Below, in pieces: positions 1,163 through 60,452 of a DNA stretch of 64,000 nt (its first letter is position 1; every line of letters begins with the position of its first letter). Source of the stretch: an uncultured Eubacteriales bacterium (GTDB taxonomy: Bacteria; Bacillota; Clostridia; Oscillospirales; CAG-382); NCBI GenBank assembly GCA_934479825.1, contig CAKSOW010000001.1, forward strand, positions 132,008-196,007, in the 5' to 3' direction. The notes beneath the pieces are model-generated. The model saw only the letters and a program-made list of their open reading frames with translations. It was not told where the DNA came from and ran no database searches. Position numbers and translations under genes: made by a program.

Positions 1163-4090
1163 GTGAAAAAAATAATTGCTTTGCTTACAGCGACTTTGTT
1201 TGTTTTAAATCCGGTTGCAGTTCTTGCCGAAGAAACGGAAAAAAACGAAACAGAAAGTCTTGCGGAGACACCTGTTTCCGCACCGGTTTCTCCGGTTGAG
1301 GATGTTTATGCCGCTACATATACACTTTCCGAGGGGTTGACCTATCGGCGGCAGATCTCCTATTCACCAACCTATGGGCAAGAGCGCGAATTCGTTCTTT
1401 CCTATACGCCGAATGAAAGCACGCGTCTTGCTTTTGCAAACGGTGAGTATTTGTATCAGACAGGAACCATCCGAAATCTTGCCGCCGCCGAATATCCTGA
1501 TGAAAACTATATCGCCGGCATCAACGCCGATTTTTTCAATATGTCTACCGGTGTTCCGGAATCGGCGTACATAAAAAATAAGGAACTGTATACCACAGAC
1601 CGTGACAGTTTCTGCCTTGCCGAGCGGGAAAACGGCAGCTTTTTCATCGATAAACCGCAGATAAAACTGACCCTCACGGCATATGATTCTGGAACAGAAT
1701 ACAATGTGCTCCACTTAAACAAAGAGTTCAGCCAATACGGCCTTTATTTGTATAATGCACGCTATTCGCCCACAACACATATCACGGCCGCCAATACGTC
1801 GGTAGTTCTTTATCCTTATTCCGATAAGAAAACGGAACAAGAGTTGATCAAAACCGTACTCTATCCGGAAAAACAAACCGAACCGGAGGAAAATGCCCCG
1901 GTAATAGCCGAACAGAACGAGCAAACGGCCGATTCAGACGAGGAAACCACAACAGATACAAACGCTGAAACGGAATTGGAAACGGAACCCGACGCGGAAA
2001 CAGAAATGCAGTCTGAAACCGATTCGGAAACTGAGTCAGAGCCGGCTACCGATACGGTTTTAGCGGAAATGCTTGAACGCCGCGACAACCTTGAACCGTA
2101 CAGCGAAGAAGCGCTGAAATTGCAGGAAGAAATCGAAAAGTATCTGTCCGAACAAACCGGATACCGCAAGATCGGTTCTTCGTATTTCCGGCTTTCTCCG
2201 GCTGCACCGCAAATCGGAAAAAGCGAAAATCTTGTAGTCGATACGGTAAATCCCACAGCCGGCAATGAAAGCATTCCGAAAGATGCTTACCTGCTTGCCG
2301 CCGACAACACTTCCTATGGCTACATACTTATGTCGTTTGTTCCCGGACAGACATTTTCCTTATCGGCAAGCGGAAATGAGGCATTTTATGACGTGAAAAA
2401 TGCCGTCGGTACCGGAACAGTCATCGTTAAGGAATCGCAACCGGTGGACGACCGCACGTTCAGTCACTATCTTTCCCCACAGCCGCGCAGTGCAGTCGGA
2501 ATACGGGCAGACGGCAGTTTGGTGCTGTTTGCGGTTGACGGCAGACAGTCCGGATACAGTGCCGGATTCAAGCTGTATGACCTTGCCAAGCGTATGGTGT
2601 CACTCGGCTGCGTGTATGCCGCCAATCTCGACGGCGGTGGCTCGACGGCTGTCAATGCATCGCTTCGCGGCAATGATTCCGCAACGACCGTCAATTCTCC
2701 CTCCGGAAAAGCTGAACGCCGCGTTTCCAACGGTATTGTGTTTACGAACACGCTTGAAAAGACCGGCATACCGTCAGAAGCCTATTTTTACGGAGATTAC
2801 TATCTGACACTTTCCGATACGCCTATCTCACTCGGAAATGTTGTTTTGTCTGACAAAAACGGGTATGCGGTTTCAATCTCCGACTCAGAGGAGCAACCGA
2901 CGCCGTCTTTCTACACCAAAGATAACACGACAATTGTATCCGACGGCAATCTCGATCCTGCCGGCACGACCGGCGCTATTGAAGTTTTTGCGTCTCTTGA
3001 CGGTCGTCAGAGTGAAAATGTAGCTGCAACGGTCGTTTCTCTTGCAGCCCCCGACGAGATCGTTCTTTCAGCGGACAAAACTGAAATTGCACCGTTTGAA
3101 ACGGCAAGCCTTTCGGTTGCGGCGTTCTATCGTAAACTCCACGTCGCATCCGGACTTCACAGCTACACATGGAGCGTATCCGAAACGCAAATCAAGGCTG
3201 ATTCCGAAGTGACATCTCCCGATATACCGGAAAACGCCGAGAAAATAACACCGGCCGGAACAGTTGCAGACGGTATTTTTACGCCGTCAACAGAGGGGAC
3301 GACGGTGACGGTTACAGCTTCACGCGGTGATGTTTCCGCAAATATCCAGATTAAGATTGATGCGTATCCGTTTGTCGATATGAAGGACCATTGGGCTGTC
3401 AAGGAAATCTATAAGTTGTATAAGACCGGCGTTGTAAAAGGGGAAATTGCCGAGGACGGCACAGCTTATTACCTGCCGGAGCGCCAATTTTCACGCTATG
3501 AATTCTGCGTTATGTTAGAGCGCTTGACCGGAATCGGCAGTGAACTTCCGGTTCCGGAGCTTCCGGCGGCAGCGGAAGAAACAGCAGCAGCCGAAACAGA
3601 ATCGGCCGAAACGGCGGCAGGTGCAGAAACAGACACGGAAGTGTCGGTTTCTGACCAGAGAGAGCCGCAGGCAGATTCGCAAACCTTGGAAGAACTGCTT
3701 GGTCTTGCTGACGCGTCGCTGATTCCGGATTGGGCGTTCTCGGCTGTGTACCGTTTGTCTGCGTCGGGACTTCTTGAAGGAATTTTGCATCATGATGAAA
3801 GCTGGAACGAGATTTTCGACGGCGATAAGCCGATTACGCGTGCCGAAGTCATCCATGTAATCGGAAAAATCTGTGAAGCCGCTCCGCTTGACTTTTCTTT
3901 GGAGGAATTCACTGATCTTAACGAATGGCAGAAACGTGACGATTACATTAAAAATGCTGTAAATGCCGGTATTTTTTCGGGTTATGAAGATATGTCTCTT
4001 CGCTTGTCGGGACTTTTGACACGAGCCGAGGGAGCGGCCGTGTTTATCCGCCTTTCCTCGCATTTAGATGAGTCGGATGATATGAACTGA
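1163..4090 (+). CDS. Secreted phosphodiester glycosidase (NAGPA-like) family protein with C-terminal SLH repeats
   Basis: GTG start after a GGAAAGG RBS. Signal peptide MKKIIALLTATLFVLNPVAVLA. GINADFF and AANLDGGGST motifs. Acidic T/E/D-rich linker. SLH-like repeats FVDMKDHWAVKEIYKLYKTGVVKG, IPDWAFSAVYRLSASGLLEG and KRDDYIKNAVNAGIFSGY. Confidence 0.85.
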   Translation: MKKIIALLTATLFVLNPVAVLAEETEKNETESLAETPVSAPVSPVEDVYAATYTLSEGLTYRRQISYSPTYGQEREFVLSYTPNESTRLAFANGEYLYQTGTIRNLAAAEYPDENYIAGINADFFNMSTGVPESAYIKNKELYTTDRDSFCLAERENGSFFIDKPQIKLTLTAYDSGTEYNVLHLNKEFSQYGLYLYNARYSPTTHITAANTSVVLYPYSDKKTEQELIKTVLYPEKQTEPEENAPVIAEQNEQTADSDEETTTDTNAETELETEPDAETEMQSETDSETESEPATDTVLAEMLERRDNLEPYSEEALKLQEEIEKYLSEQTGYRKIGSSYFRLSPAAPQIGKSENLVVDTVNPTAGNESIPKDAYLLAADNTSYGYILMSFVPGQTFSLSASGNEAFYDVKNAVGTGTVIVKESQPVDDRTFSHYLSPQPRSAVGIRADGSLVLFAVDGRQSGYSAGFKLYDLAKRMVSLGCVYAANLDGGGSTAVNASLRGNDSATTVNSPSGKAERRVSNGIVFTNTLEKTGIPSEAYFYGDYYLTLSDTPISLGNVVLSDKNGYAVSISDSEEQPTPSFYTKDNTTIVSDGNLDPAGTTGAIEVFASLDGRQSENVAATVVSLAAPDEIVLSADKTEIAPFETASLSVAAFYRKLHVASGLHSYTWSVSETQIKADSEVTSPDIPENAEKITPAGTVADGIFTPSTEGTTVTVTASRGDVSANIQIKIDAYPFVDMKDHWAVKEIYKLYKTGVVKGEIAEDGTAYYLPERQFSRYEFCVMLERLTGIGSELPVPELPAAAEETAAAETESAETAAGAETDTEVSVSDQREPQADSQTLEELLGLADASLIPDWAFSAVYRLSASGLLEGILHHDESWNEIFDGDKPITRAEVIHVIGKICEAAPLDFSLEEFTDLNEWQKRDDYIKNAVNAGIFSGYEDMSLRLSGLLTRAEGAAVFIRLSSHLDESDDMN

Positions 4091-4101
4091 CAAAAAGGAA
4101 A

Positions 4102-4420
4102 GGGAACGCGGCTTTTCGAAGGGGTACGCGGCTTTTCTTAGAAGAAAAGCCTGGCAAAAGAATTTAAATTTTAACGCGCGGCGGTTTGAATACTCAAAAC
4201 CGTCGCGCGTTCTCTTAGTTAAAGATAAAGAATTAGAGATTGAGGTGCGAATTTTTGGAAATTGCTAAAAAACATGCTTAACTTTTATAATATAATTTCA
4301 CTAAGAATAAAAGGCTCCCCGGCGATTTGAGAACTCAAATTGCCGGGGTAAAAATCAAATTCTTTTGTCCCACTTTTCTTTTAAGAAAAGTGGGCGAGGT
4401 TTAAGGGCGAGCAGCCCTTG
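4102..4420. repeat. Composite palindromic intergenic element, copy A (dimeric: inverted module, about 105-nt AT-rich core, direct module)
   Basis: Hairpins at 4130..4151 (GGCTTTTCTTAGAAGAAAAGCC), 4174..4210 (ACGCGCGGCGGTTTGAATACTCAAAACCGTCGCGCGT), 4317..4348 (CCCCGGCGATTTGAGAACTCAAATTGCCGGGG), 4369..4394 (CCCACTTTTCTTTTAAGAAAAGTGGG) and 4402..4419. Spacers CAAAAGAATTTAAATTTT and AAAAATCAAATTCTTTTG are reverse complements of each other. Lies between two convergent gene 3' ends. Confidence 0.85.
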
Positions 4421-4434
4421 CAAGGAAATCTCCG

Positions 4435-7400
4435 TTATTTCAGAGAAATGTCTACTGCTTCACAAAGCGGCACAGCGCTTGACATGCTGTCAAACAGGAA
4501 AACTTTTGCACGAGAGCCGGAAGTGGCTATCGGAATGAGAATTTCGCCGTTTGTTAAAGAATCCGCTGAGATCTCCATTAACTTCGTTGTCGTCAGTCTG
4601 CCGTCGGCATTATAGAGCGCGGCACATAACGAGACCACACCGACCGATTCGGACAGTTGCAGTTTTACAGATAGCCCTCCGGAGGCTTTTGCGACACTTA
4701 CGATCTGTGCTGTCGCTCCGACTGTGATCTTCACTGTGCGCTCAAACGTAACATCGTTGTATTTTGCGTTTACCGTTACTTCATATGTACCGGCGTCAAG
4801 CGATTTGTCAACAATAAGCGCTCTTGCATTTTCATCCCATGTGATTTCCGGTACATCAGACGTAAACGACCAAACGGCATCTTCGCTGATATCGGCAACT
4901 TGGGTGATTAGATTATCGTTCTCGTCCAAGTAAGAGTATGTGACAGAGAGTGCAAAAGCCGGACTTTGTGTTTTTTCGTGAATTTCCGGAAGAAGAAGCC
5001 GGGCCGGACCGGAAAGTTTCATGTGGGGATTTACAGAGATACCACCGGTTGCAGAGCCGGCAGAGTTGATGGCTTTGACGGCAAAGTAACGGTAATTCTC
5101 TCTTTCTGTTATTGGCACACGGAATACAAAGGTGTTTTCTGTACCCGGCAGAGAGACAAAATCGGAATTCTCACCATACTCTATTTCATAGGATTCGATT
5201 TCCGCTCCGCCGTCGCTTTCCACTGTCCAGGTCAAACGAATATAATCTTCCCCGACAAAAGCGTCAACCCGGGGCGTACTCGGCGAATCGGGAATACTTC
5301 CGTCCGGCGTTACCGTTAAATAGAGCGTGGAGCGCATTTGGCTGGCACCGATGTAATCCCCGAAAGTGGAAATGCCGACGGTATAGTTTTTTCCGTTTTC
5401 AAAACCGTTTAAACGGGTACCGCTTGAAAAAGTCCACCAATATTTGCCGTTGTCCACCTTATATTTCATGAAAACGTTCGGATCATCCGTCTCACCGTAG
5501 AATTGTATACCGCCGTTGCGCGGTTTGACGGCTGCATTTTTTACCGGGCGCGGCGCGGCGGAATTCGGGGTTCTTTCTCTCATGATTTCCGGTCCGCCGC
5601 CCTCGGCGTCATAAGCGCGAAGATAGATGCGGTAAGCGCGGTCGTTTTCAAGGCCGGTGAAAATGTGGTGCAGGGTATTGTCAAACAGAATCGGCGTTAT
5701 TTTCTGCCACTCGCCGTCGTCTAACTTTACTTCATAGCCGAGGATTTCATCAGCACTCGGCTGGAAATCAAGTTCCAGCTGTTCATAGCCGATGTAAATG
5801 GAATTGATAGTCAACTGTGACAAGGAAGACGGAGCAGTCTTTACGCATATCGCAGAATCGCCGGTGCCTGCCGAATTGACGGCACATACGCGGAAATCGT
5901 ATTCCATATTTGTTGTCAGATTTTCAAAGGTATATTCCGTGGCTGTTCCGACATCGGTATACGTTTGGCCGCCGTCTTTGGAGACTTTATATGCGAGCGG
6001 TGCGCCGCCGTCAAAGGACGGTTCTTTCCAGCTGAGAGAAGCCGTTTTGTAGTCCATGCGGACATTGAAAGAACGCGGACGGGAGGGAGTCGTGACCGTT
6101 TCGGTCGGTGTTGCATATAACGTGGTGGAATGGGAGCGGTTCATGGTAACGGTTTCTATTTCGATCTTGTAGGTAACATCGTTTTTAAGACCGCTCTTTG
6201 ACCAATCTAAATCATCGTCAAGGTAGATGCTTTCGCTGGTTAGGTCTTTTTCATTGTAGAACCATATTTTGTAGCACTTGCCGTAAGTTACGGGAACGTA
6301 TTTGTTTTCACCCCAATATCCGGGATCGTCCCATGTGACGGTAATGGTTTCGTTTGCAGCATAGACTTTCGGATTTTTAATTGGGTCGGGATCGTTTTCC
6401 GCCTCGGATACCTCAAAAGTAAACCAGCTGGGAACGCTTTCGCCGCATTCGGTAACAGCTTTTACTCCGAGCGTATACGTTTCTCCGACGGTAAGCGTCA
6501 TATCATCGCCCAACTGCAAATAGAAACTGCCGCCGGATTGAGCGGTCATGAAGTATGTTTCCCACTTCTGCTCGCCGTTTTCCATAAAGTCCTCATGGTT
6601 TTTTAAGGTGTACTGGTAGTATAGCATTTTTCCGCCGCCGTCATCCTCCGGCGCGTCAACCAGAATCCGGATCGGGTTAGGGGTGTAGGTTTGCGCGTTC
6701 TGAAAACCGGGAGCGCCGGGCAGTGTGGGATTGGTAACTGTATACACCAAGGTCACATAAGCCGCCGTAATCCCGTTTGTAACCGTTAGTGTTCCGGTAT
6801 GTGTGCCGACAGAAAGTCCCTTTTTAGGAGCAATGCCGACGGTGGCGGCGGAATTTGCCAAATCTTTTGCATAAAGCGTAGAAGAGGAAAGGGGACTTGT
6901 GATTTCAAAATCACTGTTTTCGTTAAGTTCCGCCGTGAAATCCGATTGCAATTCGGTATGTAAGCTCTTAATGGTAACAAATTGTGTTTCGGCGGCAGGA
7001 GTGCCTTTGGCATAGTTAAAGCGCATATTGCCGAAATCAAGCTCGGTTTTGTCGGCTTCTATCCAGACCGGCGTTACATATTCCGTGACCTTGACCGTGA
7101 ATGGATCGGAACGGACGCCGCCGACATTCAATACGACCGGATATTCGCCCGGCTTTACATTGCCGTTTATGACGATATCAAAACTGAACGGCGTGCTGGT
7201 ACCGATATTGCCGTGCGCGTCAAGTTCCATGCCGAGCGGCGCGCCCTCCAAAGCCGTGTATGCCTCGCGCGTAATACCGGCTGCTGTAACGGTGAAGCTT
7301 GCTTTGTTCACATGGTTTACAGTTTTCGGTCCGACCTGTTCAAGCGTCTTGGACGCGGGCGTGATTTTGACCGAAGTCGGAATAACGCCTTGCGGTTGTG

Positions 7401-10200
7401 TGACACCGGAGGTTATGTAGGTGATGACCGGGAAACGCTGTTCCGAGCCGTCGGTCGACTGGTAAACATAGTGAAGCAACCGCCAGTTGAAATCGGCTTT
7501 TTGTTCGCCGCTTCCGGAAACGTTCATGCCGTCGCCCTGGCCGAATACTGTTCCCTCAAAGCTTGTGCCGACAGCGGTCGTCGTAATCTTTCCGGCTTCA
7601 TATTCCTTTTCTGTTACAGATCCGACCGTGACTTTCGTGCCCATATCGGCAAGTCCGAAAATTCCTTCGGCTTCGGTTTCCACACCGCCGCCTAATTTTG
7701 CGCTGACCGACCAACCGGCAGAAGTGGTTTGTGTTGTTTCTTCGGTGATATCGATCGTGAGCGTTTGCGAGCCGGTGTTAGACGGGAATGTCGCAAGCCG
7801 CGGATGTGTAATGATACTGCCGTTTAAAACATTTGCCCCACTTGGCGCTGTATGCGGATAGGATTCCGGATGTCCGGGCGTGTGCGTGAATACATCTTTT
7901 AAATCCGGCAGAACACCGTCGGCATAGGGAATGAATTCTAAATAATCCTCGTAATTCAAGCTTGCAATCTTTACAGAATCCGATCCTTTTCGAGGCACGT
8001 AAACGATATACGGCGATTCCTGCAAAGCGCCGCCCGCACCCGGATAGTAAGCCGTGTAGGCATAGGCATCGTAAGCGACCGTCGAGAGAACGACCGTGTC
8101 CTCACCGCCGGTTGCCGAGAAACTTTGGGAGAACGTGACTTCGGTGGTGTTTTCCTTTTCCTGCGATTTACTGCGCAGAGCCTCATTTTCCGATTCAAAT
8201 ACTCCGGCTGTTCCGAGCGTGCCGGCTTTGATTTCAGTCGAAATGTAAGCGCCGGCCGCAACGGAAAACGATTCCGTCTTTCCGCTTGCAGTCGTTGTGC
8301 TCCGACCATAAGTCGTCTGACTGTTGGTATACATGTCATTTGGCAGCGAATCAAAGTAAGGCGGAGAGGCGAGAGCGGCAATAATGACCGGGTCTGCCCA
8401 GAAAAAGGCGTGTTTATTGTATTTTAAATAAATAGAATCGTAATCGGTGTCCGGCATGGCAACAAGAGTATATCGATTGTCACCGGCTAAAAGCGCGGCA
8501 GGCGGATTTGTTATGTATCCGTTTCCGGAGGCAGTTAAGTAATAGATGCGGTAGCCGTTTTTTGTATAGGCGCGGACAAGCGCCGCATCCGTATACGTAT
8601 TTCCGTCAAAAGAAACGTTGGCTGTCCGGATTTCGTTTACGTTAATGCCGTTGTTGAAGAAAACGCAGTCTTTTCCGGCATAACCGAAATCTGTTTCGGA
8701 AACATCCGAGCCAAAAGAGCCGGTAAATGCCCCGTTGTCCTTGACATCGTAGCGATACGTGTTTCCGTCCGGATAGCGGACAAAGGAAAGGTATTTCTGA
8801 TCAGCGATAATCGTGCCAGAAGAAACATAGCCGCTCTTGCCGGCGGAAAGACCGAAATCATTGCTTAAAATACCGATCTGAACAGGTGCATTGTCGATAG
8901 GACTTGCCTTATAGACACGTTCGGTGTCGCCGATGTAACCGTGATGATAAATACCGCCTTTGTAGACAACCGAAGATACGAAATTACCTGAATCCGTGTA
9001 ATCAAACGCAAGTATATAAAAGCGCGGCGTCAACATTTTATCGCCGTTGAAACCGACATAGTGATTCAAGGTTTCTTTCAGGGAAAGAAAAACGGTAGGC
9101 TTTCCCGAACCGTCCACGTCGGAAATGACAACATCAAACGCGGCCGCGTCGCCGGATGTTGCACTTAAACGGAGAGCCTTTTTGGTTTCACCGTCTACAT
9201 AATTCAAGAGGAGTTTGCGGTTCGTATACATATCGCGAAGCTCAGCCGCACCGCCGGTGTAGTATACGGCAAACTTGTTGTCGGAGTAGTTCGCATTGTA
9301 CTGTGCGTTGTTTGCGGTAATGGCAGAAACAATGTCGTCGTAACCGTCGCCGTTGATATCGGCAACGGCAACAGACGCAGTAACGCCGGGAGCGCCGAGA
9401 TGAGCGTTTTCGGATAACACGCCGCCGTTAACAAGCAAATAGGGTGTTTGACACCAAGTGCGGTTATCGGTGTCTTCGAGATACCAGACGAAACTGGCGT
9501 TGTAAAGATCAAACCCATATTTGTCGCCGGAACTTTGAGCGGCATAGCCGTTTATCGGGGATATCGTGATGATTTCATCGTAGCCGTCTCCGTTGAAATC
9601 ACCGCAGGCAAGTGTCGTGCAATTGACAAATTCCGCGGTGTTTGCATAGAAATCCGCTTTGCTTTCACTGCCGTCATACAGAACAGCAATCGGAACAAGC
9701 GGGGCGGAAAAATCCGCTTTGGCTGTGCAGAGAAGAAGCAAGGACTTCCCGTCTGTCTTTTTGGCGGCAACAAGCAAGGCAAGCTCGTTCTTGCGGCCGG
9801 TTCCGTCAAAATCTCCTTCATACGACGCAAGAATTTTCATTTTGCTTGCGAGCGTGAAGCTTTTGCCGGAAATGTTTACCGTACCGCCCGGAAGAGTGGG
9901 AGCGGCTTTGCTTTTCCAAGATAAAACAGTCGAAAGCGTGTTGTCTTCGCCGAAGATCCTGCTTCCCGTTTCGTTTGCAAATAGCGGCTCACGGATATCG
10001 GACAAGACGGTGCCGTCCGGATACGGAAGATTTTTTGCCTCTTCCTCCGGGTCAAGCTCGTCAGTTCCGCCGAAAATATCTTTAAAGATATCCGGTTTAC
10101 GAGGACTTTTTTGAGTTGTATCGGGCGTATTTGCGCAAACGCTTAGCGGAGAAAGAACCATGGCCGCGGCAAGCATGAGCGATATCAGCTTTTTTTTCAT
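4435..10200 (-). CDS. Giant (1921 aa) secreted FG-GAP/VCBS-repeat and fibronectin-III-repeat surface protein
   Basis: Signal peptide MKKKLISLMLAAAMVLSPLSVCA. Integrin-like Ca-binding repeats DFNGDGYDEI, DINGDGYDDIV and DVDGSGKP. Several FN3-like units (e.g. PSRPRSFNVRMDYKTASLSWKEPSFDGGAPLAYKV...YDFRVCAVNSAGTG). No LPXTG or SLH anchor. AAGGGAGAG RBS upstream of the ATG. Confidence 0.9.
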   Translation of the reverse strand: MKKKLISLMLAAAMVLSPLSVCANTPDTTQKSPRKPDIFKDIFGGTDELDPEEEAKNLPYPDGTVLSDIREPLFANETGSRIFGEDNTLSTVLSWKSKAAPTLPGGTVNISGKSFTLASKMKILASYEGDFDGTGRKNELALLVAAKKTDGKSLLLLCTAKADFSAPLVPIAVLYDGSESKADFYANTAEFVNCTTLACGDFNGDGYDEIITISPINGYAAQSSGDKYGFDLYNASFVWYLEDTDNRTWCQTPYLLVNGGVLSENAHLGAPGVTASVAVADINGDGYDDIVSAITANNAQYNANYSDNKFAVYYTGGAAELRDMYTNRKLLLNYVDGETKKALRLSATSGDAAAFDVVISDVDGSGKPTVFLSLKETLNHYVGFNGDKMLTPRFYILAFDYTDSGNFVSSVVYKGGIYHHGYIGDTERVYKASPIDNAPVQIGILSNDFGLSAGKSGYVSSGTIIADQKYLSFVRYPDGNTYRYDVKDNGAFTGSFGSDVSETDFGYAGKDCVFFNNGINVNEIRTANVSFDGNTYTDAALVRAYTKNGYRIYYLTASGNGYITNPPAALLAGDNRYTLVAMPDTDYDSIYLKYNKHAFFWADPVIIAALASPPYFDSLPNDMYTNSQTTYGRSTTTASGKTESFSVAAGAYISTEIKAGTLGTAGVFESENEALRSKSQEKENTTEVTFSQSFSATGGEDTVVLSTVAYDAYAYTAYYPGAGGALQESPYIVYVPRKGSDSVKIASLNYEDYLEFIPYADGVLPDLKDVFTHTPGHPESYPHTAPSGANVLNGSIITHPRLATFPSNTGSQTLTIDITEETTQTTSAGWSVSAKLGGGVETEAEGIFGLADMGTKVTVGSVTEKEYEAGKITTTAVGTSFEGTVFGQGDGMNVSGSGEQKADFNWRLLHYVYQSTDGSEQRFPVITYITSGVTQPQGVIPTSVKITPASKTLEQVGPKTVNHVNKASFTVTAAGITREAYTALEGAPLGMELDAHGNIGTSTPFSFDIVINGNVKPGEYPVVLNVGGVRSDPFTVKVTEYVTPVWIEADKTELDFGNMRFNYAKGTPAAETQFVTIKSLHTELQSDFTAELNENSDFEITSPLSSSTLYAKDLANSAATVGIAPKKGLSVGTHTGTLTVTNGITAAYVTLVYTVTNPTLPGAPGFQNAQTYTPNPIRILVDAPEDDGGGKMLYYQYTLKNHEDFMENGEQKWETYFMTAQSGGSFYLQLGDDMTLTVGETYTLGVKAVTECGESVPSWFTFEVSEAENDPDPIKNPKVYAANETITVTWDDPGYWGENKYVPVTYGKCYKIWFYNEKDLTSESIYLDDDLDWSKSGLKNDVTYKIEIETVTMNRSHSTTLYATPTETVTTPSRPRSFNVRMDYKTASLSWKEPSFDGGAPLAYKVSKDGGQTYTDVGTATEYTFENLTTNMEYDFRVCAVNSAGTGDSAICVKTAPSSLSQLTINSIYIGYEQLELDFQPSADEILGYEVKLDDGEWQKITPILFDNTLHHIFTGLENDRAYRIYLRAYDAEGGGPEIMRERTPNSAAPRPVKNAAVKPRNGGIQFYGETDDPNVFMKYKVDNGKYWWTFSSGTRLNGFENGKNYTVGISTFGDYIGASQMRSTLYLTVTPDGSIPDSPSTPRVDAFVGEDYIRLTWTVESDGGAEIESYEIEYGENSDFVSLPGTENTFVFRVPITERENYRYFAVKAINSAGSATGGISVNPHMKLSGPARLLLPEIHEKTQSPAFALSVTYSYLDENDNLITQVADISEDAVWSFTSDVPEITWDENARALIVDKSLDAGTYEVTVNAKYNDVTFERTVKITVGATAQIVSVAKASGGLSVKLQLSESVGVVSLCAALYNADGRLTTTKLMEISADSLTNGEILIPIATSGSRAKVFLFDSMSSAVPLCEAVDISLK

Positions 10201-12851: not shown

Positions 12852-14867
12852 TCAGGCGTTTGTAAACTCTCTCGCTTCACCGAGAACCGTGAAAGAGCGC
12901 AGATCACTTAAAACAAAAGCTTTGATCTTTGCAATTTTTCCGTCAGAGTTGAAAAATTCAGAACCCAAGGAAATTGTCTGACCGAGCGCCGGATCGGCGT
13001 ACAGATAGCGCGTATTCAACATCCGTCCGTTCACATCATATGTTGCAATAAGTATCGAACACGACCCGGTGTAGGTGTTGTTGGTGAGAGTCACTTCGGC
13101 GATGAAATCGCTGGCCGGAATCGATGAAATCGGCTCATAAGCAGTTGTTTTGAGAGTGATAGCGGAAAGGGTAACTTGGTCAACATCGGGCACGGAAGCA
13201 AAATGAATTGTGGCAGAGGTGAGACATTCGTTATCGGAACCAATATTTATTTTATTCCACTCGTCCTCGGTTCCTGCATAGTAGACATCTTTAATACTGC
13301 TGCCTTTCGTTGTGATGCAATAATCAAAAGCTCCGTCACATATTTCTGTTACACTTCTTGGAATCGTAACAGATGTAAGACTGGTACACCCACTAAAAGT
13401 ATCTTCGCCAATACTCTTAACGCCGTTTTCGATAATAACCGTTGCAAGTTTATCACAACTGCGAAAGGCAGAATTGCCCAAGCTGGCCACAGTACCGGGG
13501 ATGGTGATACTCGTGAGATTTGTGCATTCCTCGAAAGCCCACCATTCAATGCTTGTTACACTGTTCGGTATAGTTATATTTGTCAGCCCGGTACAATGGT
13601 AAAAAGCATTATTTTCTATGCTTGTCACACTGTTTGGTATGTTTATATTTTTCAGACCGGTGCAATCATAAAAGGTTGAATCGCCAATATTCATTATACC
13701 GTCCGGAATAGTTACACTTACAAGATTGGCACAACCGGAAAAAGCGGATCCTTCAATGCGTTTTACACTCAATGGGATATTATAACTTTTTGCAGAATTG
13801 CCGGCAGGATATTGAATTAGTTTTGTTTTATCTTTATCGAATAATACGCCATAATCATCGTTTGAATAGTCGGGGTTATTTTCATCAACTGTGATACAAG
13901 TTAAATTGGGACAGTTAACAAAAGCTCCCAGTCCAATACTTGTCACACTGTCCGGTATAGTTATACTTGTAAGTCCGTCGCAACCGGCAAAGGCTGCATA
14001 GTCAATATTCGTTACACTGTCCGGTATGGTTATGCTTGTCAAACCGGTGCAATAGGAAAAAGCTTGGTGTCTTATTTTAGTAACACTATCCGGAATGACA
14101 ATGCTTTTTATACTTTTTAAACCCAAAAACGTATAACCCTTGATTTCAGTAATATTATCCGAAAGAATTATATCTGTCTGTTTTACTCCGTTTACATATA
14201 ATTCAATAACGTCATGTCCAGGATAAATATTACAATAAAAAGGTGAAGAATTGTAAGAATAAAAATCAATTTTGCACCACGCGTCAAGGTCTGTAATATT
14301 TACAGAAGAAAGATTTGAGCATTTGTCAAAAGGATTGTACCCTATACTTATCACACTATCCGGGAAGGTAATGCTTGTAAGGCCGGTGCAATAACAAAAA
14401 GCATAATCTCCTATACTTATCACACTGTCAGGTATGGTTATGTTTGTAAGACCGGCGCAATTCTTAAAGACAGAATCGCCGATGCTTGTTATGCCGTTTC
14501 CCAAAGTAAGATTTGTGAGATTGCTGCAACCGGAAAATGTGGAACGACCTATATTGGTTACACTGTCCGGAATAGTAGCGTTTACAAGATTTGTGCAATC
14601 TGCAAAGGCAGAATTGCTAATCCGCGTTACACCGTCTGTTACAATAACTGTAATAATCTGCTCTTTGTAAGAATCCCACGAAGAAGTGCTATTACTCATA
14701 TAGCCTTGTCCGCTAATTGTCAACACGCCGGTTTCCGTATTCAATTCCCAAGTGACATTATCCCCGCTTGCTCCGCAATTACCAGACAACACTTCTGCGT
14801 TTACGCCGCAGGTCATCACAACGGCAAATAACAGAATGGTGCATAGAACTCCAAAGATTTTCTTCAT
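12852..14867 (-). CDS. Secreted BspA-type leucine-rich-repeat surface protein
   Basis: Likely start MKKIFGVLCTILLFAVVMTCGVNA at 14867 after an AAGGAG RBS. About 20 tandem units of about 23 aa of the type IPDSVTSIGxxAFxxCxxLTSITIP. C-terminal non-LRR domain. Confidence 0.9.
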   Translation of the reverse strand: MKKIFGVLCTILLFAVVMTCGVNAEVLSGNCGASGDNVTWELNTETGVLTISGQGYMSNSTSSWDSYKEQIITVIVTDGVTRISNSAFADCTNLVNATIPDSVTNIGRSTFSGCSNLTNLTLGNGITSIGDSVFKNCAGLTNITIPDSVISIGDYAFCYCTGLTSITFPDSVISIGYNPFDKCSNLSSVNITDLDAWCKIDFYSYNSSPFYCNIYPGHDVIELYVNGVKQTDIILSDNITEIKGYTFLGLKSIKSIVIPDSVTKIRHQAFSYCTGLTSITIPDSVTNIDYAAFAGCDGLTSITIPDSVTSIGLGAFVNCPNLTCITVDENNPDYSNDDYGVLFDKDKTKLIQYPAGNSAKSYNIPLSVKRIEGSAFSGCANLVSVTIPDGIMNIGDSTFYDCTGLKNINIPNSVTSIENNAFYHCTGLTNITIPNSVTSIEWWAFEECTNLTSITIPGTVASLGNSAFRSCDKLATVIIENGVKSIGEDTFSGCTSLTSVTIPRSVTEICDGAFDYCITTKGSSIKDVYYAGTEDEWNKINIGSDNECLTSATIHFASVPDVDQVTLSAITLKTTAYEPISSIPASDFIAEVTLTNNTYTGSCSILIATYDVNGRMLNTRYLYADPALGQTISLGSEFFNSDGKIAKIKAFVLSDLRSFTVLGEAREFTNA

Positions 14868-14948
14868 AATGTCTGTTCTCCTTGTCAATAAATTAAACTG
14901 TGCTTTAAACTTTATACAAATGACATTTTGTTTCAATTATTATATCGT

Positions 14949-43545: not shown

Positions 43546-43630
43546 GACGCGCGGCGGTTTTGAGTATTCAAACCGCCTTGCGTCAAAAAATTAAATTCTT
43601 TTGCCGGGCTTTTCTTCTAAGAAAAGCCGC
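43546..43630. repeat. Monomeric copy (D) of the palindromic repeat module
   Basis: H1 GACGCGCGGCGGTTTTGAGTATTCAAACCGCCTTGCGTC (43546..43584), spacer AAAAAATTAAATTCTTTTGCC, H2 GGCTTTTCTTCTAAGAAAAGCC (43607..43628), tail GCATTCCC. Confidence 0.85.
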
Positions 43631-43646
43631 ATTCCCTTACTACGTT

Positions 43647-44417
43647 TTAAAAACCTCTGTCCGTTGCTACATACTCCGAATAGGCAAATCCGAGCACACC
43701 GTCATAATCGACCACATACCACTCGCCGGACAGACAGTAGACCGTCATGCGCGCTCCTTTGGGCGCTTGCGTGAGAACTTCGCTGTCAAGCGACGGCAAA
43801 CGGCGGATATTCAATCTGTCACGCTCGGTAATAACAGTCGCGTTTGTACTGTCAGAGGACGTGTCGCCGGTCGGCAGATCCACAAAGGGAATTCCGAAAT
43901 AGATTGTCAATCCCTGCACGAGATTCCGTGCAATCGGTCGGATATTGTTTTTGATCCATTCCGCATCGGTCGGATTGTCGTGATAAGCAAGCTCTGCCAA
44001 AACCGCAGGCGCATTGGTTCGGGTGACTTCGGCAAGCGTCGTGGTCGGCATAATGGTCACCTTGGAGGGATCGGGATAGATCTTCCGGTAATTGTCAGCA
44101 AGAACGGTCGCCGCGTTGCGCCCGGCGGAACTGCGCGTATAATAATAGAAATCGGGGCCGGAAAGCTGACCGGCTAAATACTCGGGCGCGGCGTTGGAAT
44201 GAAGCGCCAGATGTAAATCATAAGTACCGGCATTGGATTCACGGATGATCTGCGAAAGAGTATTATTCGGATTGTTGCGCGTAAAAGAAATGCCGGAAGC
44301 GTCCAGATACGGCTCCATAGCGTCGGCAATGAGATTCATATAATATTCTTCACTGCCGGAATTGTCGTAATAGGGATTGTACTCTTGGGCAGAGGGACTT
44401 AAAAAAATCGACGGCAT
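43647..44417 (-). CDS. N-acetylmuramoyl-L-alanine amidase-like cell-wall hydrolase with C-terminal SH3b domain
   Basis: IFLSPSAQEYNPY...DLHLALHSNAAP...AVLAELAYHDN (Amidase_3-like Zn site). C-terminal LNIRRLPSLDSEVLTQAPKGARMTVYCLSGEWYVVDYDGVLGFAYSEYV (SH3). Confidence 0.8.
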   Translation of the reverse strand: MPSIFLSPSAQEYNPYYDNSGSEEYYMNLIADAMEPYLDASGISFTRNNPNNTLSQIIRESNAGTYDLHLALHSNAAPEYLAGQLSGPDFYYYTRSSAGRNAATVLADNYRKIYPDPSKVTIMPTTTLAEVTRTNAPAVLAELAYHDNPTDAEWIKNNIRPIARNLVQGLTIYFGIPFVDLPTGDTSSDSTNATVITERDRLNIRRLPSLDSEVLTQAPKGARMTVYCLSGEWYVVDYDGVLGFAYSEYVATDRGF

Positions 44418-49637: not shown

Positions 49638-49675
49638 TTTAATACGCAGGGGCCGCTCTCTCCCTCACGCTTTGC

Positions 49676-49910
49676 CCCCAGTGATTTGAAAATTTAAATC
49701 ACTGGGGTTTTTGTTTTTCGTTAAGATCGATAATTTTGTGCTTAATTACAGCAACAGGCGAAGTGCGTTCGTCAACACTTCACATTCCTATTTCTGAATT
49801 TTCATCTTAATCAAGAGAACGCGCGGCGGTTTGAATTCTCAAAACCGCCGCGCATCAAAAACTAAATTCTTTTGCTAAGCTCTTCTTTAAACAATAAGAA
49901 AAGCTGCGTT
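49676..49910. repeat. Composite palindromic intergenic element, copy C (diverged dimeric copy)
   Basis: Hairpin CCCCAGTGATTTGAAAATTTAAATCACTGGGG plus T-run (49676..49720). The core ends in TTTTCATCTTAATCAAGAGAAC as in copy B. H1 GCGCGGCGGTTTGAATTCTCAAAACCGCCGCGC (49821..49853), spacer ATCAAAAACTAAATTCTTTTGC, degenerate H2. Confidence 0.75.
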
Positions 49911-49915
49911 TCCTT

Positions 49916-50422
49916 TCAATCTAAATACGCCATATTCGGTGCGATTTCAATAACACCGTCTTTGTATGAGGAATGATTGAAAAACTCATCGAAAAATTCC
50001 ATCGGCACATAGGTAACGCCGTCATAAATGACTGTTTCACAAGCATTTTTGATTTCTCTGCTAAGGTCGATCACCTTCAATTTTCCTTTGATTGATACCT
50101 CGGCTGTTCCGTCATAGAGGGTGGCCATTTGCGTATAGGCATCCTCCACCGTGACAGCGCCGCTTTTTTCATCCCACGTCACGGTATAGCCGAGTGCCTC
50201 AGCCACCAATCGCAGGGGCACCATATAGGTGTTGTTTTCAGCGTAAGGGGCTTTCGGGAGCATACTTGTATCAAGCTCTTTTTCCGATACACGAAGAACT
50301 GTTTTAAATTCTTCCGGAGCGACAGCTGAGATATCCGGTGTGGATGCCTCCGCAACATTGGAGAGCAGACACATGGAGAGAATACAAAGGCCGATAACGA
50401 GATAACTGACAAAGTTTTTCAT
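49916..50422 (-). CDS. Secreted copper-amine-oxidase N-terminal (stalk-like) domain protein
   Basis: Start MKNFVSYLVIGLCILSMCLL after a GGAGGA RBS. MVPLRLVAEALGYTVTWDEKSGAVTV is the hallmark of the Cu_amine_oxidN1 fold. Confidence 0.8.
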   Translation of the reverse strand: MKNFVSYLVIGLCILSMCLLSNVAEASTPDISAVAPEEFKTVLRVSEKELDTSMLPKAPYAENNTYMVPLRLVAEALGYTVTWDEKSGAVTVEDAYTQMATLYDGTAEVSIKGKLKVIDLSREIKNACETVIYDGVTYVPMEFFDEFFNHSSYKDGVIEIAPNMAYLD

Positions 50423-50503
50423 AAGCGATCCTCCTTGGAACGATTTCGGTTGATACCCATAAGACGCTATCACCGGAAAAAAGTTCCGCTTTGTTATAAA
50501 AAT

Positions 50504-51790: not shown

Positions 51791-52017
51791 ATTCTTCTTC
51801 CCTTTTAGAACACATGTTTCTTTTGAATATATTTTAGCACACGTGTTCGCATTTGTCAAGAACAAATGTTTGCAAATTACACCTGTTTTTGAATTTGAAA
51901 GAAAAATTGTGAAAAAGATGAAAAAAACAGGAAACTTTTCTTTCTGTTTTTTCGTCTAACTGGCATAAAACCAAAGTAAAAGCAAAATTTATATATTTAT
52001 TGAAAGGACTTATTGCA

Positions 52018-53067
52018 ATGAAAAATGTGAAAAACACCTCCAAACGTCTTGCGCTTGCTTTTCTTGCCGTTGCCCTTACTGCGACTTTGCTTGTTTCTCT
52101 CGTTGCCTGCGGAAGTAAGGCCTATTACGATAACTCGGATTATTTGATGGACACTTCCGAAAGTCCAGGCTCTCCTTCCGGCGGTGCGGAGGCAAAAAGC
52201 TCCCGTGATTATAACGGTAACTACTCTTTTGGCACTAGGGCTGAAAATTACTATGATTCCGACGGAGCCGCTATGGAATCGGAAAGTCAATCCTCTCTTG
52301 CCGAACAAGCAGAAACTGCGCGAAAAATCATTTACACCTCCTATTTCAGCGTTCAGACGACGGAATTTGATCAAGCAGCCGCCGCGCTTGACCGCTTATG
52401 CGAAAAATACGGCGCTTACTATGAACGGTCAGATACCTACGGATACGCCGATGAGGGAAACCGAAACGGTTCTTTTACCATTCGCGTACCGGCGGACAAA
52501 TATCAAGCGTTTCGCACCGAGGCCGGAAATATCGGAACAGTGGTGCATTCAACCGAAAACAACGAAGACGTCAGTGAACGGTATTTCGATACCGAAGCGC
52601 GCTTGTCCAGCGCCAAGCTCCGCGAAGAGCGGTTATTGGACATTTTAAGCAAAGCAGAAAGCCTCGACAATGTGCTCCTTTTGGAATCTGAACTTGCCGA
52701 TGTTCGTTATGAGATTGAAAGCCTTTCCGGAACGCTACGCCGCTATGATTCGTTGATCAGCTATTCCACCGTCAATATCGATTTGCAGGAGGTCTTTAAA
52801 CCGATTGCGGTTCAGACAATGCCCAAAACGTTTGGCGAGCGGATTTCGCAGGCTGTATCAAACGGATTCCGTGACTTTGGCAATACCATGGAAGATTTTG
52901 CGGTGGATGTTTCGTATGGGTTACCGGGCATCTTGCTGTTTGTGATTTTTGTGGTCATTTTGGTTATTGTTATCCGAGTTATTATCAAAAAAGCCGGAAA
53001 AAAGGCGAAAAACAAAGCAAAGCCGGAAATTCCGGCCGAACAGCCAAAGAACGATGATAGCAAATAA
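52018..53067 (+). CDS. DUF4349-like lipoprotein with C-terminal TM anchor
   Basis: Lipobox LVACGS, low-complexity linker, FTIRVPADKYQAFRTE..., coiled-coil region, C-terminal GILLFVIFVVILVIVIRVII. Confidence 0.7.
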   Translation: MKNVKNTSKRLALAFLAVALTATLLVSLVACGSKAYYDNSDYLMDTSESPGSPSGGAEAKSSRDYNGNYSFGTRAENYYDSDGAAMESESQSSLAEQAETARKIIYTSYFSVQTTEFDQAAAALDRLCEKYGAYYERSDTYGYADEGNRNGSFTIRVPADKYQAFRTEAGNIGTVVHSTENNEDVSERYFDTEARLSSAKLREERLLDILSKAESLDNVLLLESELADVRYEIESLSGTLRRYDSLISYSTVNIDLQEVFKPIAVQTMPKTFGERISQAVSNGFRDFGNTMEDFAVDVSYGLPGILLFVIFVVILVIVIRVIIKKAGKKAKNKAKPEIPAEQPKNDDSK

Positions 53068-53081: not shown

Positions 53082-53380
53082 TAAGGGCTGCTCACCCTTA
53101 AACCTCGCCCACTTTTCTTAAAAGAAAAGTGGGACAAAAGAATTTGATTTTTTGTCCCCGCCATTTGAATTCTCAAATCGCCGGGGACTTTTTATCTTAG
53201 TGAAAATGAAAAAATGTACTATTTTAAAAGTGAGGCATGTTTTCCAACAATTCGCACCACAATCTCCCAATTTTTCATCTTTAATCAAGAGAACGCGCGG
53301 AGGTTTTGAGTATTCAAACCGCCGCGCGTTAAAACTAAATTCTTTTGCCAGGCTTTTCTTCTAAGAAAAGCCGCGTTCCC
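53082..53380. repeat. Composite palindromic intergenic element, copy B (reverse complement of copy A)
   Basis: Hairpins at 53108..53133 (CCCACTTTTCTTAAAAGAAAAGTGGG), 53156..53186, 53292..53330 (AACGCGCGGAGGTTTTGAGTATTCAAACCGCCGCGCGTT) and 53351..53372 (GGCTTTTCTTCTAAGAAAAGCC). By hand, the reverse complement aligns to 4102..4420 over its full length with a few indels in the core. Confidence 0.85.
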
Positions 53381-53395: not shown

Positions 53396-54001
53396 TTAAT
53401 CCAATTCAATCCTTTTATCTGCAACGCTCTCCGCTTCGGCACGGTCATGCGTTACCCAAAGCACCGTCTTTCCTTTGCATTTTTTAAGAATATAGGAGGC
53501 AACTAACTTTTTGTTATCCTCGTCCAATCCGCTTGTCGGTTCATCGAGAAACACAAAAGCGCTGTCACATAGCATCGCACGCAAAATAGCAACGCGCCGT
53601 TTCATTCCTCCGCTGAGAGAAGAAACAGGCTTGTTCAACAACGTTCGCTCCATCCCGACCTCTTCAAGCATATCGCCAAGATCGGAACGTGCAACTTTTT
53701 CGACAAGTCTTAAATTCCGGTAAACCGTAACATTTTCAACAAGCCGGTTTTCCTGAAAAACGAAAGCGATTTTTGCATTTTTGTCCGGAATACCGACCAC
53801 TGTTCCGCTATCCGGCTTGATAAGGCCGGCTAACAAATAAAGTAACGTCGTTTTTCCGCAACCGGATTCGCCCATTAAGCACGTAACCGCATTATCCGGA
53901 ATTTTGGCGCAAAAATCCGCTAGAACCGCCTTTTCATCAAAGGACTTCGAGAGGTTTTCAATCACAATCGACACCGGCTCACATCCTTTCAAACAGCGCA
54001 A
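53396..54001 (-). CDS. ABC transporter ATP-binding protein (NitT/TauT-type importer)
   Basis: Walker A GESGCGKTT, signature LSGGMKRR, Walker B VFLDEPTSGLD. Start uncertain (ATG 54001 or GTG 53974). Confidence 0.85.
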   Translation of the reverse strand: MRCLKGCEPVSIVIENLSKSFDEKAVLADFCAKIPDNAVTCLMGESGCGKTTLLYLLAGLIKPDSGTVVGIPDKNAKIAFVFQENRLVENVTVYRNLRLVEKVARSDLGDMLEEVGMERTLLNKPVSSLSGGMKRRVAILRAMLCDSAFVFLDEPTSGLDEDNKKLVASYILKKCKGKTVLWVTHDRAEAESVADKRIELD

Positions 54002-59307: not shown

Positions 59308-59377
59308 GCTTTTCGTTTCGCGAAAAACAGAAAGAGACGGTTTTTGTGTTACTTTTTCGCTTGTACGAAAAAGTAAC
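59308..59377. repeat. Left arm of a 70-bp imperfect inverted repeat (two hairpins) flanking a gene-less 885-bp segment
   Basis: GCTTTTCGTTTCGCGAAAAACAGAAAGAGACGGTTTTTGTGTTACTTTTTCGCTTGTACGAAAAAGTAAC. By hand, close to 90 percent identical to the reverse complement of 60263..60334. Confidence 0.8.
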
Positions 59378-60262: not shown

Positions 60263-60334
60263 GTTACTTTTTCGTACAAACGAAAAAGTAACTAAAAAAT
60301 CGTCTCTTTTCTTGCTTTTCGTGAAACGAAAAGC
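60263..60334. repeat. Right arm of the 70-bp inverted repeat
   Basis: GTTACTTTTTCGTACAAACGAAAAAGTAACTAAAAAATCGTCTCTTTTCTTGCTTTTCGTGAAACGAAAAGC. Confidence 0.8.
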
Positions 60335-60368
60335 GTTCTTTCCGGGCATTTCCGGAAAAGCAAAAGCC

Positions 60369-60452
60369 GCCCTGCGTCACAGAACATTTCGTGACGCAGG
60401 GCGCCAAAATCAAAATTCTTTTGCTCGGCTTTTTCTTCTAAGAAAAGCCGCG
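60369..60452. repeat. Monomeric copy (F) of the palindromic repeat module with a completely different H1 stem
   Basis: H1 GCCCTGCGTCACAGAACATTTCGTGACGCAGGGC (60369..60402), spacer GCCAAAATCAAAATTCTTTTGCT, H2 CGGCTTTTTCTTCTAAGAAAAGCCG (60426..60450), tail CGTTCCCC. On the minus strand, H1 is followed by GGCTTTTGCTTTT and probably terminates the XRE gene. Confidence 0.8.

Follow-up and report, generated by a model that had tools for sequence, protein, structure and literature searches.

To our knowledge, the intergenic repeats of gut Clostridia are almost undescribed, and we know of only one bacterial intrastrand-triplex repeat that has been studied, BoxC, which is still without a function. BoxC or PIT elements (TMECO) are reportedly the subject of Hoyne et al. 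2000. Here, we describe a repeat family in a 64,000-nt stretch of DNA from an uncultured Eubacteriales bacterium (contig CAKSOW010000001.1; the window), represented by copy A at 4098-4420. The family resembles the repetitive extragenic palindromic (REP) sequences and bacterial interspersed mosaic elements (BIMEs) of Escherichia coli, with their REP-associated tyrosine transposases (RAYTs). Like these, it consists of short palindromes in many copies, located between genes after stop codons and often between convergent genes, forms composites of oppositely oriented units round a linker, maintains its stems by compensatory change and differs sharply in number between related lineages. With seven copies in 64 kb, all intergenic and all adjoining stop codons, the REP/BIME analogy drawn in the initial annotation is a fair one as far as behavior goes. 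It differs from REP/BIMEs in its gut Clostridia host, in lacking a conserved GTAG-type tetranucleotide and, among the window open reading frames (ORFs) scanned, a RAYT, and in that each unit has its own U-tract terminator and includes, unlike REPs, a hairpin of pyrimidine and purine arms accompanied by a mirror third strand.

With BoxC/PIT elements and the entries of the ITxF catalogue, the family shares three consecutive blocks (Hoogsteen, pyrimidine and purine strands), the intergenic location, the complementary class on the other strand, and abundance in some genomes with absence in close relatives; intrastrand triplex motifs within bacterial intergenic repeats are a known category (PMC4666352). 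However, BoxC is G/C-rich (CCCTCNCCC..GGGNGAGGG..GGGNGAGGG), of the purine motif and proteobacterial, whereas the motif described here is A/T-rich, offers seven triples including one C+.G-C, has a G+C clamp, is coupled to terminators and gene ends, and shows third-strand covariation. The window motif does not match the BoxC/TMECO consensus CCCTCNCCC-N3-6-GGGNGAGGG-N3-GGGNGAGGG. Elements that do resemble BoxC/TMECO, being G/C-rich mirror-plus-hairpin sequences, were seen in Christensenellaceae and other gut contigs (L063 ~357-400, L071 ~2880-2920 and L219 ~150-190; CTCCCTCC...CCTCCCTC-GTCC-GAGGGAGG and TCCCCCTT...TTCCCCCT-GTC-AGGGGGAA). Most short A/T-rich triplex hits were treated as likely chance by Holder et al. 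2015 (PMC4666352), and a full-text literature search covering part of the journals returned no description of this A/T-rich motif. The family had initially gone unrecognized, and Rfam 15 likewise gave no gathering-score match in the whole window and, at E values up to 10, sub-threshold noise only over 4050-4470 and at a gene-start copy of the motif in locus L016. The family is a new repeat in the REP/BoxC-type category of intergenic repeats and falls in the general class of potential intrastrand triplexes.

We suggest that each module is probably a ready-made gene 3'-end cassette, combining a terminator with a triplex-capable boundary hairpin, of a REP-like repeat family that has spread and expanded in this species lineage. 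In gene-sense order, a cassette runs from the stop codon through 3-25 nt to a G-rich tail (GGGAACGC), in place of which one subtype (R-type) has a small hairpin, and then through a second hairpin (H2), CAAAAGAAUUU with an A/U-rich linker and a first hairpin (H1) to a U-rich tract. H1 and the U tract would terminate transcription of the adjacent gene, while H2, a highly regular hairpin of pyrimidine and purine arms that a variable G+C clamp closes, would form in the mRNA 3' untranslated region. The triplex-capable hairpin may add a single-strand structure of unusual stability to the gene boundary, acting as a barrier to exonucleases or to incoming transcription.

A search of the window with the pattern AAATTCTTTTGYNNNNCTTTTCTT (up to three mismatches) returned seven modules, as compared with 0.09 in shuffled sequences, and the H2 core CTTTTCTT-NN-AAGAAAAG occurs six times against an expectation of 0.07. 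The module matches lie at 4142-4165 (-), 4357-4380 (+), 43593 (+), 49864 (+), 53122 (-), 53337 (+) and 60413 (+). The initial annotation had counted six or more intergenic sites; the multi-copy intergenic family is confirmed, but the sites number five:

4100-4216 and 4300-4420, copy A
43546-43636, single cassette
49821-49913, single cassette
53083-53199 and 53294-53380, copy B
60368-60457, single cassette

A hairpin CCCCAGTGA near 49690, previously included as a module, is a separate plain terminator. The cassettes measure ~100-135 bp and are placed just 3' of the stop codons of unrelated genes. Two module subtypes can be distinguished. L-type modules have an H1 of the form CGCGCGGCGG.., the tail GCGTTCCC and ~30 conserved nt past H1; R-type modules have an H1 of the form CCCCGGCG.., an H2 clamp CCCA/TGGG, the tail CGAGG and a third hairpin (H3), AAGGGCGAGCAGCCCTT.

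Copy A, whose sequence and division into conserved and variable parts are as first described, is flanked by a convergent gene pair, namely a + strand SLH-domain glycosidase-like gene (1163-4090) and a - strand gene (4435-10200) for a 1921-aa FG-GAP/fibronectin surface protein. Its left tail begins 8 nt past the stop codon of the + strand gene. The parts of copy A are as follows:

4098-4129, + strand: left (L-type) G-rich tail, GGGAACGC / GGGGTACGC in gene sense, tandemly duplicated with a 20-nt period
4130-4151, + strand: left H2, GGCTTTTCTT-AG-AAGAAAAGCC, with pyrimidine arm, purine arm and 2-bp clamp
4155-4165, - strand: left spacer AAATTCTTTTG (CAAAAGAATTT on the + strand), proposed third (Hoogsteen) strand and mirror of the H2 arm
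4175-4216, + strand: left H1, a GC-rich hairpin (4175-4209) with the tract TTCTCTT (4210-4216), predicted intrinsic terminator of gene 1163-4090
4217-4299: AT-rich core between the cassettes, homologous in copies A and B, with a TTGCTA-N18-TATAAT match at 4262-4291 (+)
4300-4348, - strand: right (R-type) H1 hairpin (4317-4348) with the tract AGCCTTTTATTCTTA (4300-4316), predicted terminator of gene 4435-10200
4357-4367, + strand: right spacer AAATTCTTTTG, proposed third strand
4369-4394, + strand: right H2, CCCACTTTTCTT-TT-AAGAAAAGTGGG, with 4-bp clamp
4395-4419, + strand: right tail CGAGG and third hairpin AAGGGCGAGCAGCCCTT (4403-4419), 15 nt short of the stop codon (4435-4437) of the - strand gene

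For each of the seven window modules, a gene reads into the module and its stop codon is 3-25 nt from the tail side, and the same orientation holds for all other copies with readable context (L117, two copies; L153, L170, L175, L195 and L215). The 10 nt past H1 contain on average 6.2 T residues in gene sense and 1.9 in the opposite sense, and the T-rich tract follows H1 only in gene sense in 17 of 17 copies (the seven window modules and 10 from metagenome contigs, aligned as A5). H1 with its U tract is therefore best read as a one-directional intrinsic terminator of the adjacent gene, and the terminator role that had been among the candidates is borne out to this extent. Predicted folding energies of the H1 stems range from -19 to -40 kcal/mol; a simple terminator scanner misses these hairpins owing to bulges. 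As in other intrinsic terminators, a U-rich tract comes after a G+C-rich stem-loop when read with the upstream gene, and in other lineages the hairpin adjoining the motif is bordered by an A tract and, on its other side, by a U tract, as in bidirectional terminators. However, a terminator has no need of H2, an 11-nt spacer or a tail, and the conserved loop or apical part of H1, GAGTATTC, kept in 11 of the 17 aligned copies, is unusual. The G-rich tail beside H2 (GGGRRACG in gene sense) occurs in some copies as two or three tandem repeats with a 13-20-nt period (window 4098-4137; L183, L006, L215). In the L-type, the tail could pair alternatively with the 3' side of H1 and the U tract, to which it is complementary (AAGGGAACGCG / CGCGTTCTCTT); an antiterminator built in this way, with an 11-bp helix, is possible in the L-type but not in the R-type or in other lineages, and we did not adopt it.

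The stems are subject to compensatory change, as initially claimed. RNAalifold applied to the 17 copies yielded 12 pairs in H1 and 10 pairs in H2, with double compensatory changes at 11 of the 12 H1 pairs and at both clamp pairs of H2. Paired cells amount to 95.4%, compared with 79.9% in shuffles, and the covariation score is 0.44 versus 0.15 for shuffled alignments (none of 500 shuffles reached 0.44; slid controls gave at most 0.11). The covariation of the clamp indicates that the hairpin is under selection. The eight H2 core pairs and the 11-nt spacer AAATTCTTTTG are invariant across all 17 copies, in line with the earlier remark that the unpaired spacer is the best-conserved part.

That remark had led to the proposal that the spacer is a sequence-specific recognition site. 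Its conservation stands, but a better account of the spacer is that it would serve as Hoogsteen third strand in an intrastrand triple helix formed with H2, as it mirrors an H2 arm and covaries with it in other loci. The spacer sequence TTCTTTT is the exact mirror (reverse, not complement) of the H2 pyrimidine arm TTTTCTT; parallel Hoogsteen pairing with the purine arm AAGAAAA is therefore possible. In all seven window modules, TTCTTTT and AAGAAAA match in parallel at seven of seven positions, giving six T.A-T triples and one C+.G-C triple. The strand AAATTCTTTTG-linker-CTTTTCTT-NN-AAGAAAAG has the block order of a class IV pyrimidine-motif intrastrand triplex, i.e., Hoogsteen, pyrimidine and purine strands (Hoyne/Maher; ITxF catalogue, PMC4666352), and the complementary, gene-sense strand is thereby automatically of the class II purine motif. 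A triplex would account for the frozen sequence of spacer and H2 core, beyond what pairing demands, while clamps and H1 drift in a compensatory manner.

The mirror relation exceeds chance and tracks sequence change, in a three-way covariation. A degenerate scan of metagenome contigs, in which two positions were left free in each of the three strands, gave 122 matches. Of these, 109 were canonical, eight had all three strands changed together (TTTTTTT / TTTTTTT / AAAAAAA) and five were mixed; the eight co-changed matches read AAATTTTTTTG with CTTTTTTT..AAAAAAAG and have differing clamps. Variants at the same loci that had not been selected by the pattern also obey the rule, namely TTTCTTC-G...CTTCTTT..AAAGAAG, TCTTTTT-G...TTTTTCT, CTTTCTT-G...TTCTTTC, TTCCTTT-G...CTTTCCTT (arm TTTCCTT) and TTTCTTT-G...CTTTCTTT, and mirrors of 12 nt are present in L078 (CTTTTCTTTTTC / CCTTTTTCTTTTC) and L184. 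Among perfect 8-bp pyrimidine/purine hairpins taken whatever their flank, with asymmetric non-canonical cores kept (Y8/R8 test), a perfect mirror 7-mer occurred at the expected offset in 5.3%, as compared with 1.4% for a direct repeat and 0.3% for mirrors to the flanks of other hairpins. In an offset-anchored test (pyrimidine 7-mer plus G), 10 of 23 non-canonical cases were exact mirrors, whereas permutation gave 0.5-1.7 and none of 2000 permutations reached 10; eight of the 13 non-matches are canonical motifs shifted in register. A strict 7-mer count did not separate mirrors (18) from direct repeats (17), which was traced to clamp-core overlaps and complements of Shine-Dalgarno (SD) sequences, and was superseded by the offset-anchored tests. 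Conservation over 27 strain variants of an abundant gut locus was discarded as circular, as these loci had been retrieved by the motif itself.

Several points weigh against a terminator joined to a triplex-capable hairpin. Both the terminator and the triplex are deduced from sequence. The canonical set was retrieved with a pattern that requires the mirror, such that only the non-canonical variants count as independent, and these amount to tens of cases, some of which share ancestry. The linker from third strand to stem is short, consisting of G plus 3-5 nt that are mostly clamp-paired; its geometry is plausible by analogy with loop 1 of pseudoknots. The asymmetry of G.U pairs is weak in H1 (11 versus 20 in the 17 real H1 copies; the tool total, over 23 rows of which six are without H1, is 19 forward versus 43 reverse), and in the clamps it is 5:1 in gene-start contexts and 4:4 in gene-end contexts. 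Such wobble asymmetry is compatible with a hairpin in whichever RNA is sense, but the numbers are small and too weak to decide the strand. In the window family, it is the purine third strand that the gene-sense RNA carries, and purine-motif triplexes are not formed in RNA according to the literature. Finally, across other taxa the motif has no single orientation relative to transcription, with ~24 sequence clusters at gene starts and ~35 at gene ends.

Given the purine third strand of the gene-sense RNA, a triplex that matters here would need to act at the DNA level, or else in RNA that is antisense or results from read-through. We infer that a triple helix forms, and likewise in which molecule. 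In DNA, either strand could fold, one per motif, and the structure might be extruded under transcription-driven supercoiling, as proposed for BoxC/PIT elements; an RNA triplex would depend on read-through from the convergent partner. Known RNA triple helices, such as those of the element for nuclear expression (ENE) of MALAT1 or of pseudoknot loop 1 in telomerase RNA and the SAM-II and preQ1-II riboswitches, likewise contain a run of U.A-U triples with an occasional C+.G-C, and their pyrimidine strand lies immediately 5' of the 5' strand of the stem, in the major groove and parallel to the purine strand. The motif described here differs in being a 5' tail with a simple hairpin, involving no poly(A) capture, pseudoknot or ligand; as compared with an ENE, it has no internal loop and captures no A tract. 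In RNA, a triplex would be expected only where transcription is antisense or reads through, and at the gene starts of other taxa. That the triplex is functionally important as such is possible, but we hold this view with low confidence.

The motif is not confined to the window. In an exact scan that covered one genome per species, the canonical motif with its matching purine arm was found in Christensenellaceae, Oscillospiraceae, Acutalibacteraceae, other Clostridia, Bulleidia, Saccharibacteria and one Woesebacteria genome. No genome with many copies was found in this collection, which apparently does not include the window's own genome. In ~74 sequence clusters, with crude gene calls, the hairpin side faces the stop codon of a convergent gene in ~35 and a start codon at a distance of 11-37 nt in ~24, and a terminator hairpin that has a U tract often lies next to the third-strand side. 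Gene-start contexts, in which the sense RNA carries the pyrimidine third strand, include a conserved gltX/ychF site in Christensenellaceae, where the motif lies directly 5' of the ychF ribosome-binding site. As to gene ends, in an abundant gut lineage the stop codon of an oxidoreductase gene is followed by the reversed motif and then by a terminator with a U6 tract, and in two Saccharibacteria genomes (L032 4870-5038; L049 3250-3411) the identical AAATTCTTTTG and CTTTTCTT..AAGAAAAG occur 5-10 nt past the CCA end of convergent tRNA-Trp and tRNA-Arg genes, followed by a bidirectional terminator. The same layout 3' of tRNA genes argues against a ribosome-related role of the gene-end version, and it also weakens a ribosome or SD role for the G-rich tail, which we had considered and set aside. 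A second, independent multi-copy family built on the triplex hairpin was noticed on a Christensenellaceae chromosome (OY762278.1; L034, at 741, 2027 and 6124), and has a conserved 5' flank, AACTGTAAGTTCTTTTAT; it seems that the repeats amplified round the same motif differ from lineage to lineage.

A broader reading would hold that spacer plus H2 is a previously unrecognized, widespread bacterial triple-helix motif, built from a pyrimidine strand on the 5' side, a G, a clamp and a hairpin of pyrimidine and purine arms, that marks gene boundaries in several phyla, a general punctuation of transcription units rather than a lineage-specific repeat. If so, gene-start copies would form a U.A-U RNA triple helix on their own, immediately 5' of the ribosome-binding site, and gene-end copies would act via DNA strands or read-in antisense RNA beside the terminator. 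We offer this only tentatively and regard it as rather doubtful.

The initial annotation had treated copy A as a single 320-bp unit like a miniature inverted-repeat transposable element (MITE), with terminal inverted repeats of ~90 bp. The inverted arms inside copy A extend over 47 nt at 81% identity, and they are two different subtypes that also occur alone. Copy A has the order L-type (reversed), core, R-type, and copy B (53083-53380) is the whole unit reverse-complemented, core included; the R-type ends of the two copies are 99% identical over 70 nt. In a second composite, on L117, the subtypes are arranged the other way round and the core is unrelated. The remaining cassettes of the window are arranged as follows:

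53083-53199, gene sense on the + strand: copy B left (R-type), with H3 53083-53099, H2 53108-53133, CAAAAGAATTT 53135-53145, H1 53155-53188 and a T-rich tract; behind the + strand gene 52000-53067
53294-53380, + strand: copy B right (L-type), with H1 53294-53328, spacer 53337-53347, H2 53351-53372 and tail GCGTTCCC 53373-53380; behind the - strand gene 53396-54001
43546-43636, + strand: solo L-type cassette, with H1 43546-43584, spacer 43593-43603, H2 43607-43628 and the tail to 43636; behind the - strand amidase gene 43647-44417
49821-49913, + strand: solo L-type cassette, with H1 49821-49853, spacer 49864-49874, H2 49878-49905 (8-nt loop, one C.A that is G.U in gene sense) and tail 49906-49913; behind the - strand gene 49916-50473
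60368-60457, + strand: solo cassette with an unrelated H1 (60368-60403), spacer 60413-60423, H2 60427-60449 (one bulged T) and tail GCGTTCCC 60450-60457; behind the - strand helix-turn-helix gene 60479-60817

As two different subtypes each sit on the 3' end of their own convergent gene, and as halves occur solo at three other window sites, the picture of a single 320-bp unit is not supported. The "dimer" is two facing cassettes, one behind each convergent gene, and copies A and B are duplicates of the whole arrangement. The ORF list of the window contains six convergent junctions, and by our count cassettes are present at three of them. A small peptide encoded in the AT-rich core was also considered and rejected; the ORFs there (18 aa and 15 aa) are in different frames in copies A and B. 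The genes of the window are ordinary chromosomal ones (lepA, hemN, CCA-adding enzyme, proC, Xer-type recombinases, ABC transporters), with no transposase among those scanned. Tandem 69-nt periodic repeats at 13342-14609 (nine copies, 128-nt unit, 60-72% identity), within the - strand gene 12852-14936, encode BspA-type leucine-rich repeats and are ordinary coding repeats.

The distribution of the cassettes points to a recent, lineage-specific expansion. The amidase beside the 43546 module has exact protein matches on 21 human-gut metagenome or metagenome-assembled-genome contigs (ENA, NCBI, Logan), with homologues labelled Clostridia, Ruminococcaceae or Oscillospiraceae; all 21 contigs carry the same cassettes, which are therefore not assembly artefacts. 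In related species (amidase amino-acid identities of 84, 80 and 71%), plain bidirectional terminators take the equivalent place, and the triplex motif is absent from 51 kb of these loci, as compared with seven occurrences in the 64-kb window; the comparison covers one orthologous site, 3' of the amidase gene, in rearranged neighborhoods. Absence of the cassettes from these loci of related species indicates that the expansion was recent and confined to this lineage, and strains at 96% identity or more keep the cassettes.

Such a pattern could also arise if the 320-bp unit or each of its halves were a non-autonomous mobile element, i.e., a MITE, a REP/RAYT element or a palindrome-associated transposable element (PATE) derived from the insertion sequences (IS) IS200/IS605, with hairpins recognized by a transposase encoded elsewhere and termination being incidental. 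The multi-copy, lineage-specific occurrence and the absence from orthologous sites of related species are as expected for mobile DNA, as are the near-identity of copies A and B in places (99% over 70 nt) and the tandem cassettes in L165; identical 11-mers in distant phyla could mean horizontal spread. In addition, an orthologous-looking site in L129 carries a different cassette variant: L129 104-207 and window 4347-4449 share spacer, H2 and H3 as well as 30 further nt, which take in the final five codons (ISLK*) of the convergent gene, and then diverge completely, while H1 and clamp differ. This pattern is suggestive of recombination among cassettes, or of a cassette that brings along the C-terminal codons of a gene. 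IS200-type transposases are present in the species, but the proposed association with a RAYT or IS200/IS605 gene was not found. The only Y1 transposase found is encoded by a strain-specific IS200 (L097 6200-6930, a strain variant of window ~40700; 159 aa) inserted after a P-type ATPase gene, and the end hairpins of this IS are unrelated to the cassette. A tblastn search with the L097 TnpA gave no match in the window or in ~220 other loci besides L097, and no Y1/Y1_Tnp or DDE transposase was present among the window ORFs scanned. Beside the L097 IS200 is a plain bidirectional terminator whose stem GCGGCTTTTCTTTTAAGAAAAGCCGC corresponds to an H2-like core without a third strand.

Cassettes do share with MITEs (Correia in Neisseria; RUP and BOX in Streptococcus) that they are small, non-coding and multi-copy, with long hairpins and terminators or promoters that affect neighboring genes. 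However, they have no terminal inverted repeats that clearly define one element, their orientation is strictly bound to the 3' end of the adjacent gene, and neither the borders of copy A nor those of copy B, where the annotation had called for a check, show a target-site duplication. No parent IS with matching ends lies within the window, and viral contigs and plasmid and phage collections gave no match to the cassette. A clean insertion or empty site is likewise absent among 10 strain variants, the sole difference being the replacement of a gene together with its cassette. At this place (window 49640-49920), a gene with a Cu_amine_oxidN1 domain, the cassette 49821-49913 and the CCCCAGTGA terminator are jointly replaced in five strains (L094 4520-4800, L096, L098, L100 and L101) by an ORF for a 49-aa signal-peptide protein (43 aa in some contigs) and a different terminator. 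Taken together, we consider a non-autonomous mobile element an unlikely explanation. A separate, non-coding repeated element of ~1.03 kb occupies window 59308-60334, with terminal inverted repeats of ~80 nt (59308-59387 versus 60253-60334) and hairpins GTTACTTTTTCG..CGAAAAAGTAAC. Its internal 236-aa ORF is an R/K/S-rich junk translation with no Pfam or NCBIfam match, and the element has no Rfam match; copies 70-77% identical occur on gut contigs L129, L170, L175 and L183, in L129 directly adjoining a cassette. Either a large MITE-like element or, upstream of lepA, a large non-coding RNA would be compatible with these features.

A second alternative dispenses with the triple helix and takes spacer plus H2 as a duplex DNA site for a protein, gyrase- or IHF-type as in E. 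coli BIMEs, or a regulator. What is conserved would here be sequence rather than structure, the blocks CTTTTG / CTTTTC / GAAAAG are 11-12 bp, or one helical turn, apart, and the location between convergent genes is like that of E. coli BIMEs. Yet the repeat relation is a mirror that is kept when the sequence changes, whereas proteins reading a duplex gain nothing from mirror symmetry; the clamp covariation points to a selected hairpin; and the motif is common to Clostridia and Patescibacteria, which have few regulators in common. The same half-sites taken as direct repeats for a protein were rejected, given that the TTTTTTT change hits differing half-site positions but the same mirror positions. 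A protein site thus seems quite improbable.

Third, the modules might be small RNA genes transcribed from promoters in the core, reading H1, spacer and H2, with a U.A-U triple-helix hairpin and an antisense extension into the 3' end of the neighboring gene. The promoter-like motif TTGCTA-N18-TATAAT noted initially does exist in copy A and points into the right module; contrary to the view that it has no counterpart in copy B, TTGTTG-N18-TAAAAT stands there at the aligned place, with a -10-like TAAAAT. RNA in this direction carries the third strand in its pyrimidine version, from which alone an RNA triplex is expected, and in other taxa this orientation is clearly transcribed in sense, 5' of start codons. 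However, no terminator follows H2 in this direction, the H1 U tract exists only in the opposite sense, the 43546 cassette lies between two same-strand genes with no room for a promoter, and the L-type and solo copies, judged by reading, have no convincing -35/-10 elements (the promoter scan covered 3900-4600). AT-rich DNA yields promoter-like matches readily, three having been found where 0.7 +/- 1.0 are expected. We consider small RNA genes very improbable. A sigma-70 promoter within spacer/H2 (readings TAAAAT and TATAAG) was also rejected; it has no consistent -35 and a variable loop.

Finally, that the modules are ordinary terminators grown alike by drift or chance can be practically dismissed, because, although H1 behaves as a terminator and a plain terminator in L097 has the same CTTTTCTT..AAGAAAAG stem, this reading is refuted by the copy-number statistics (seven matches versus 0.09 expected) and by the homology of copies A and B as whole units, core included, and the invariant 11-nt spacer and conserved tails lie outside the needs of a terminator.

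In this family, a triplex-capable hairpin and an intrinsic terminator are clearly linked in their anatomy, at the 3' ends of genes. The natural covariation of its third strand supports Hoogsteen pairing in vivo, a kind of evidence that is rare outside riboswitches and eukaryotic or viral ENEs. Being short and portable, the element lends itself to direct tests of its effect on termination, read-through, mRNA half-life and DNA structure. Should the triplex be functional, a recurrent signal is at present being missed in genome annotation and by terminator predictors.

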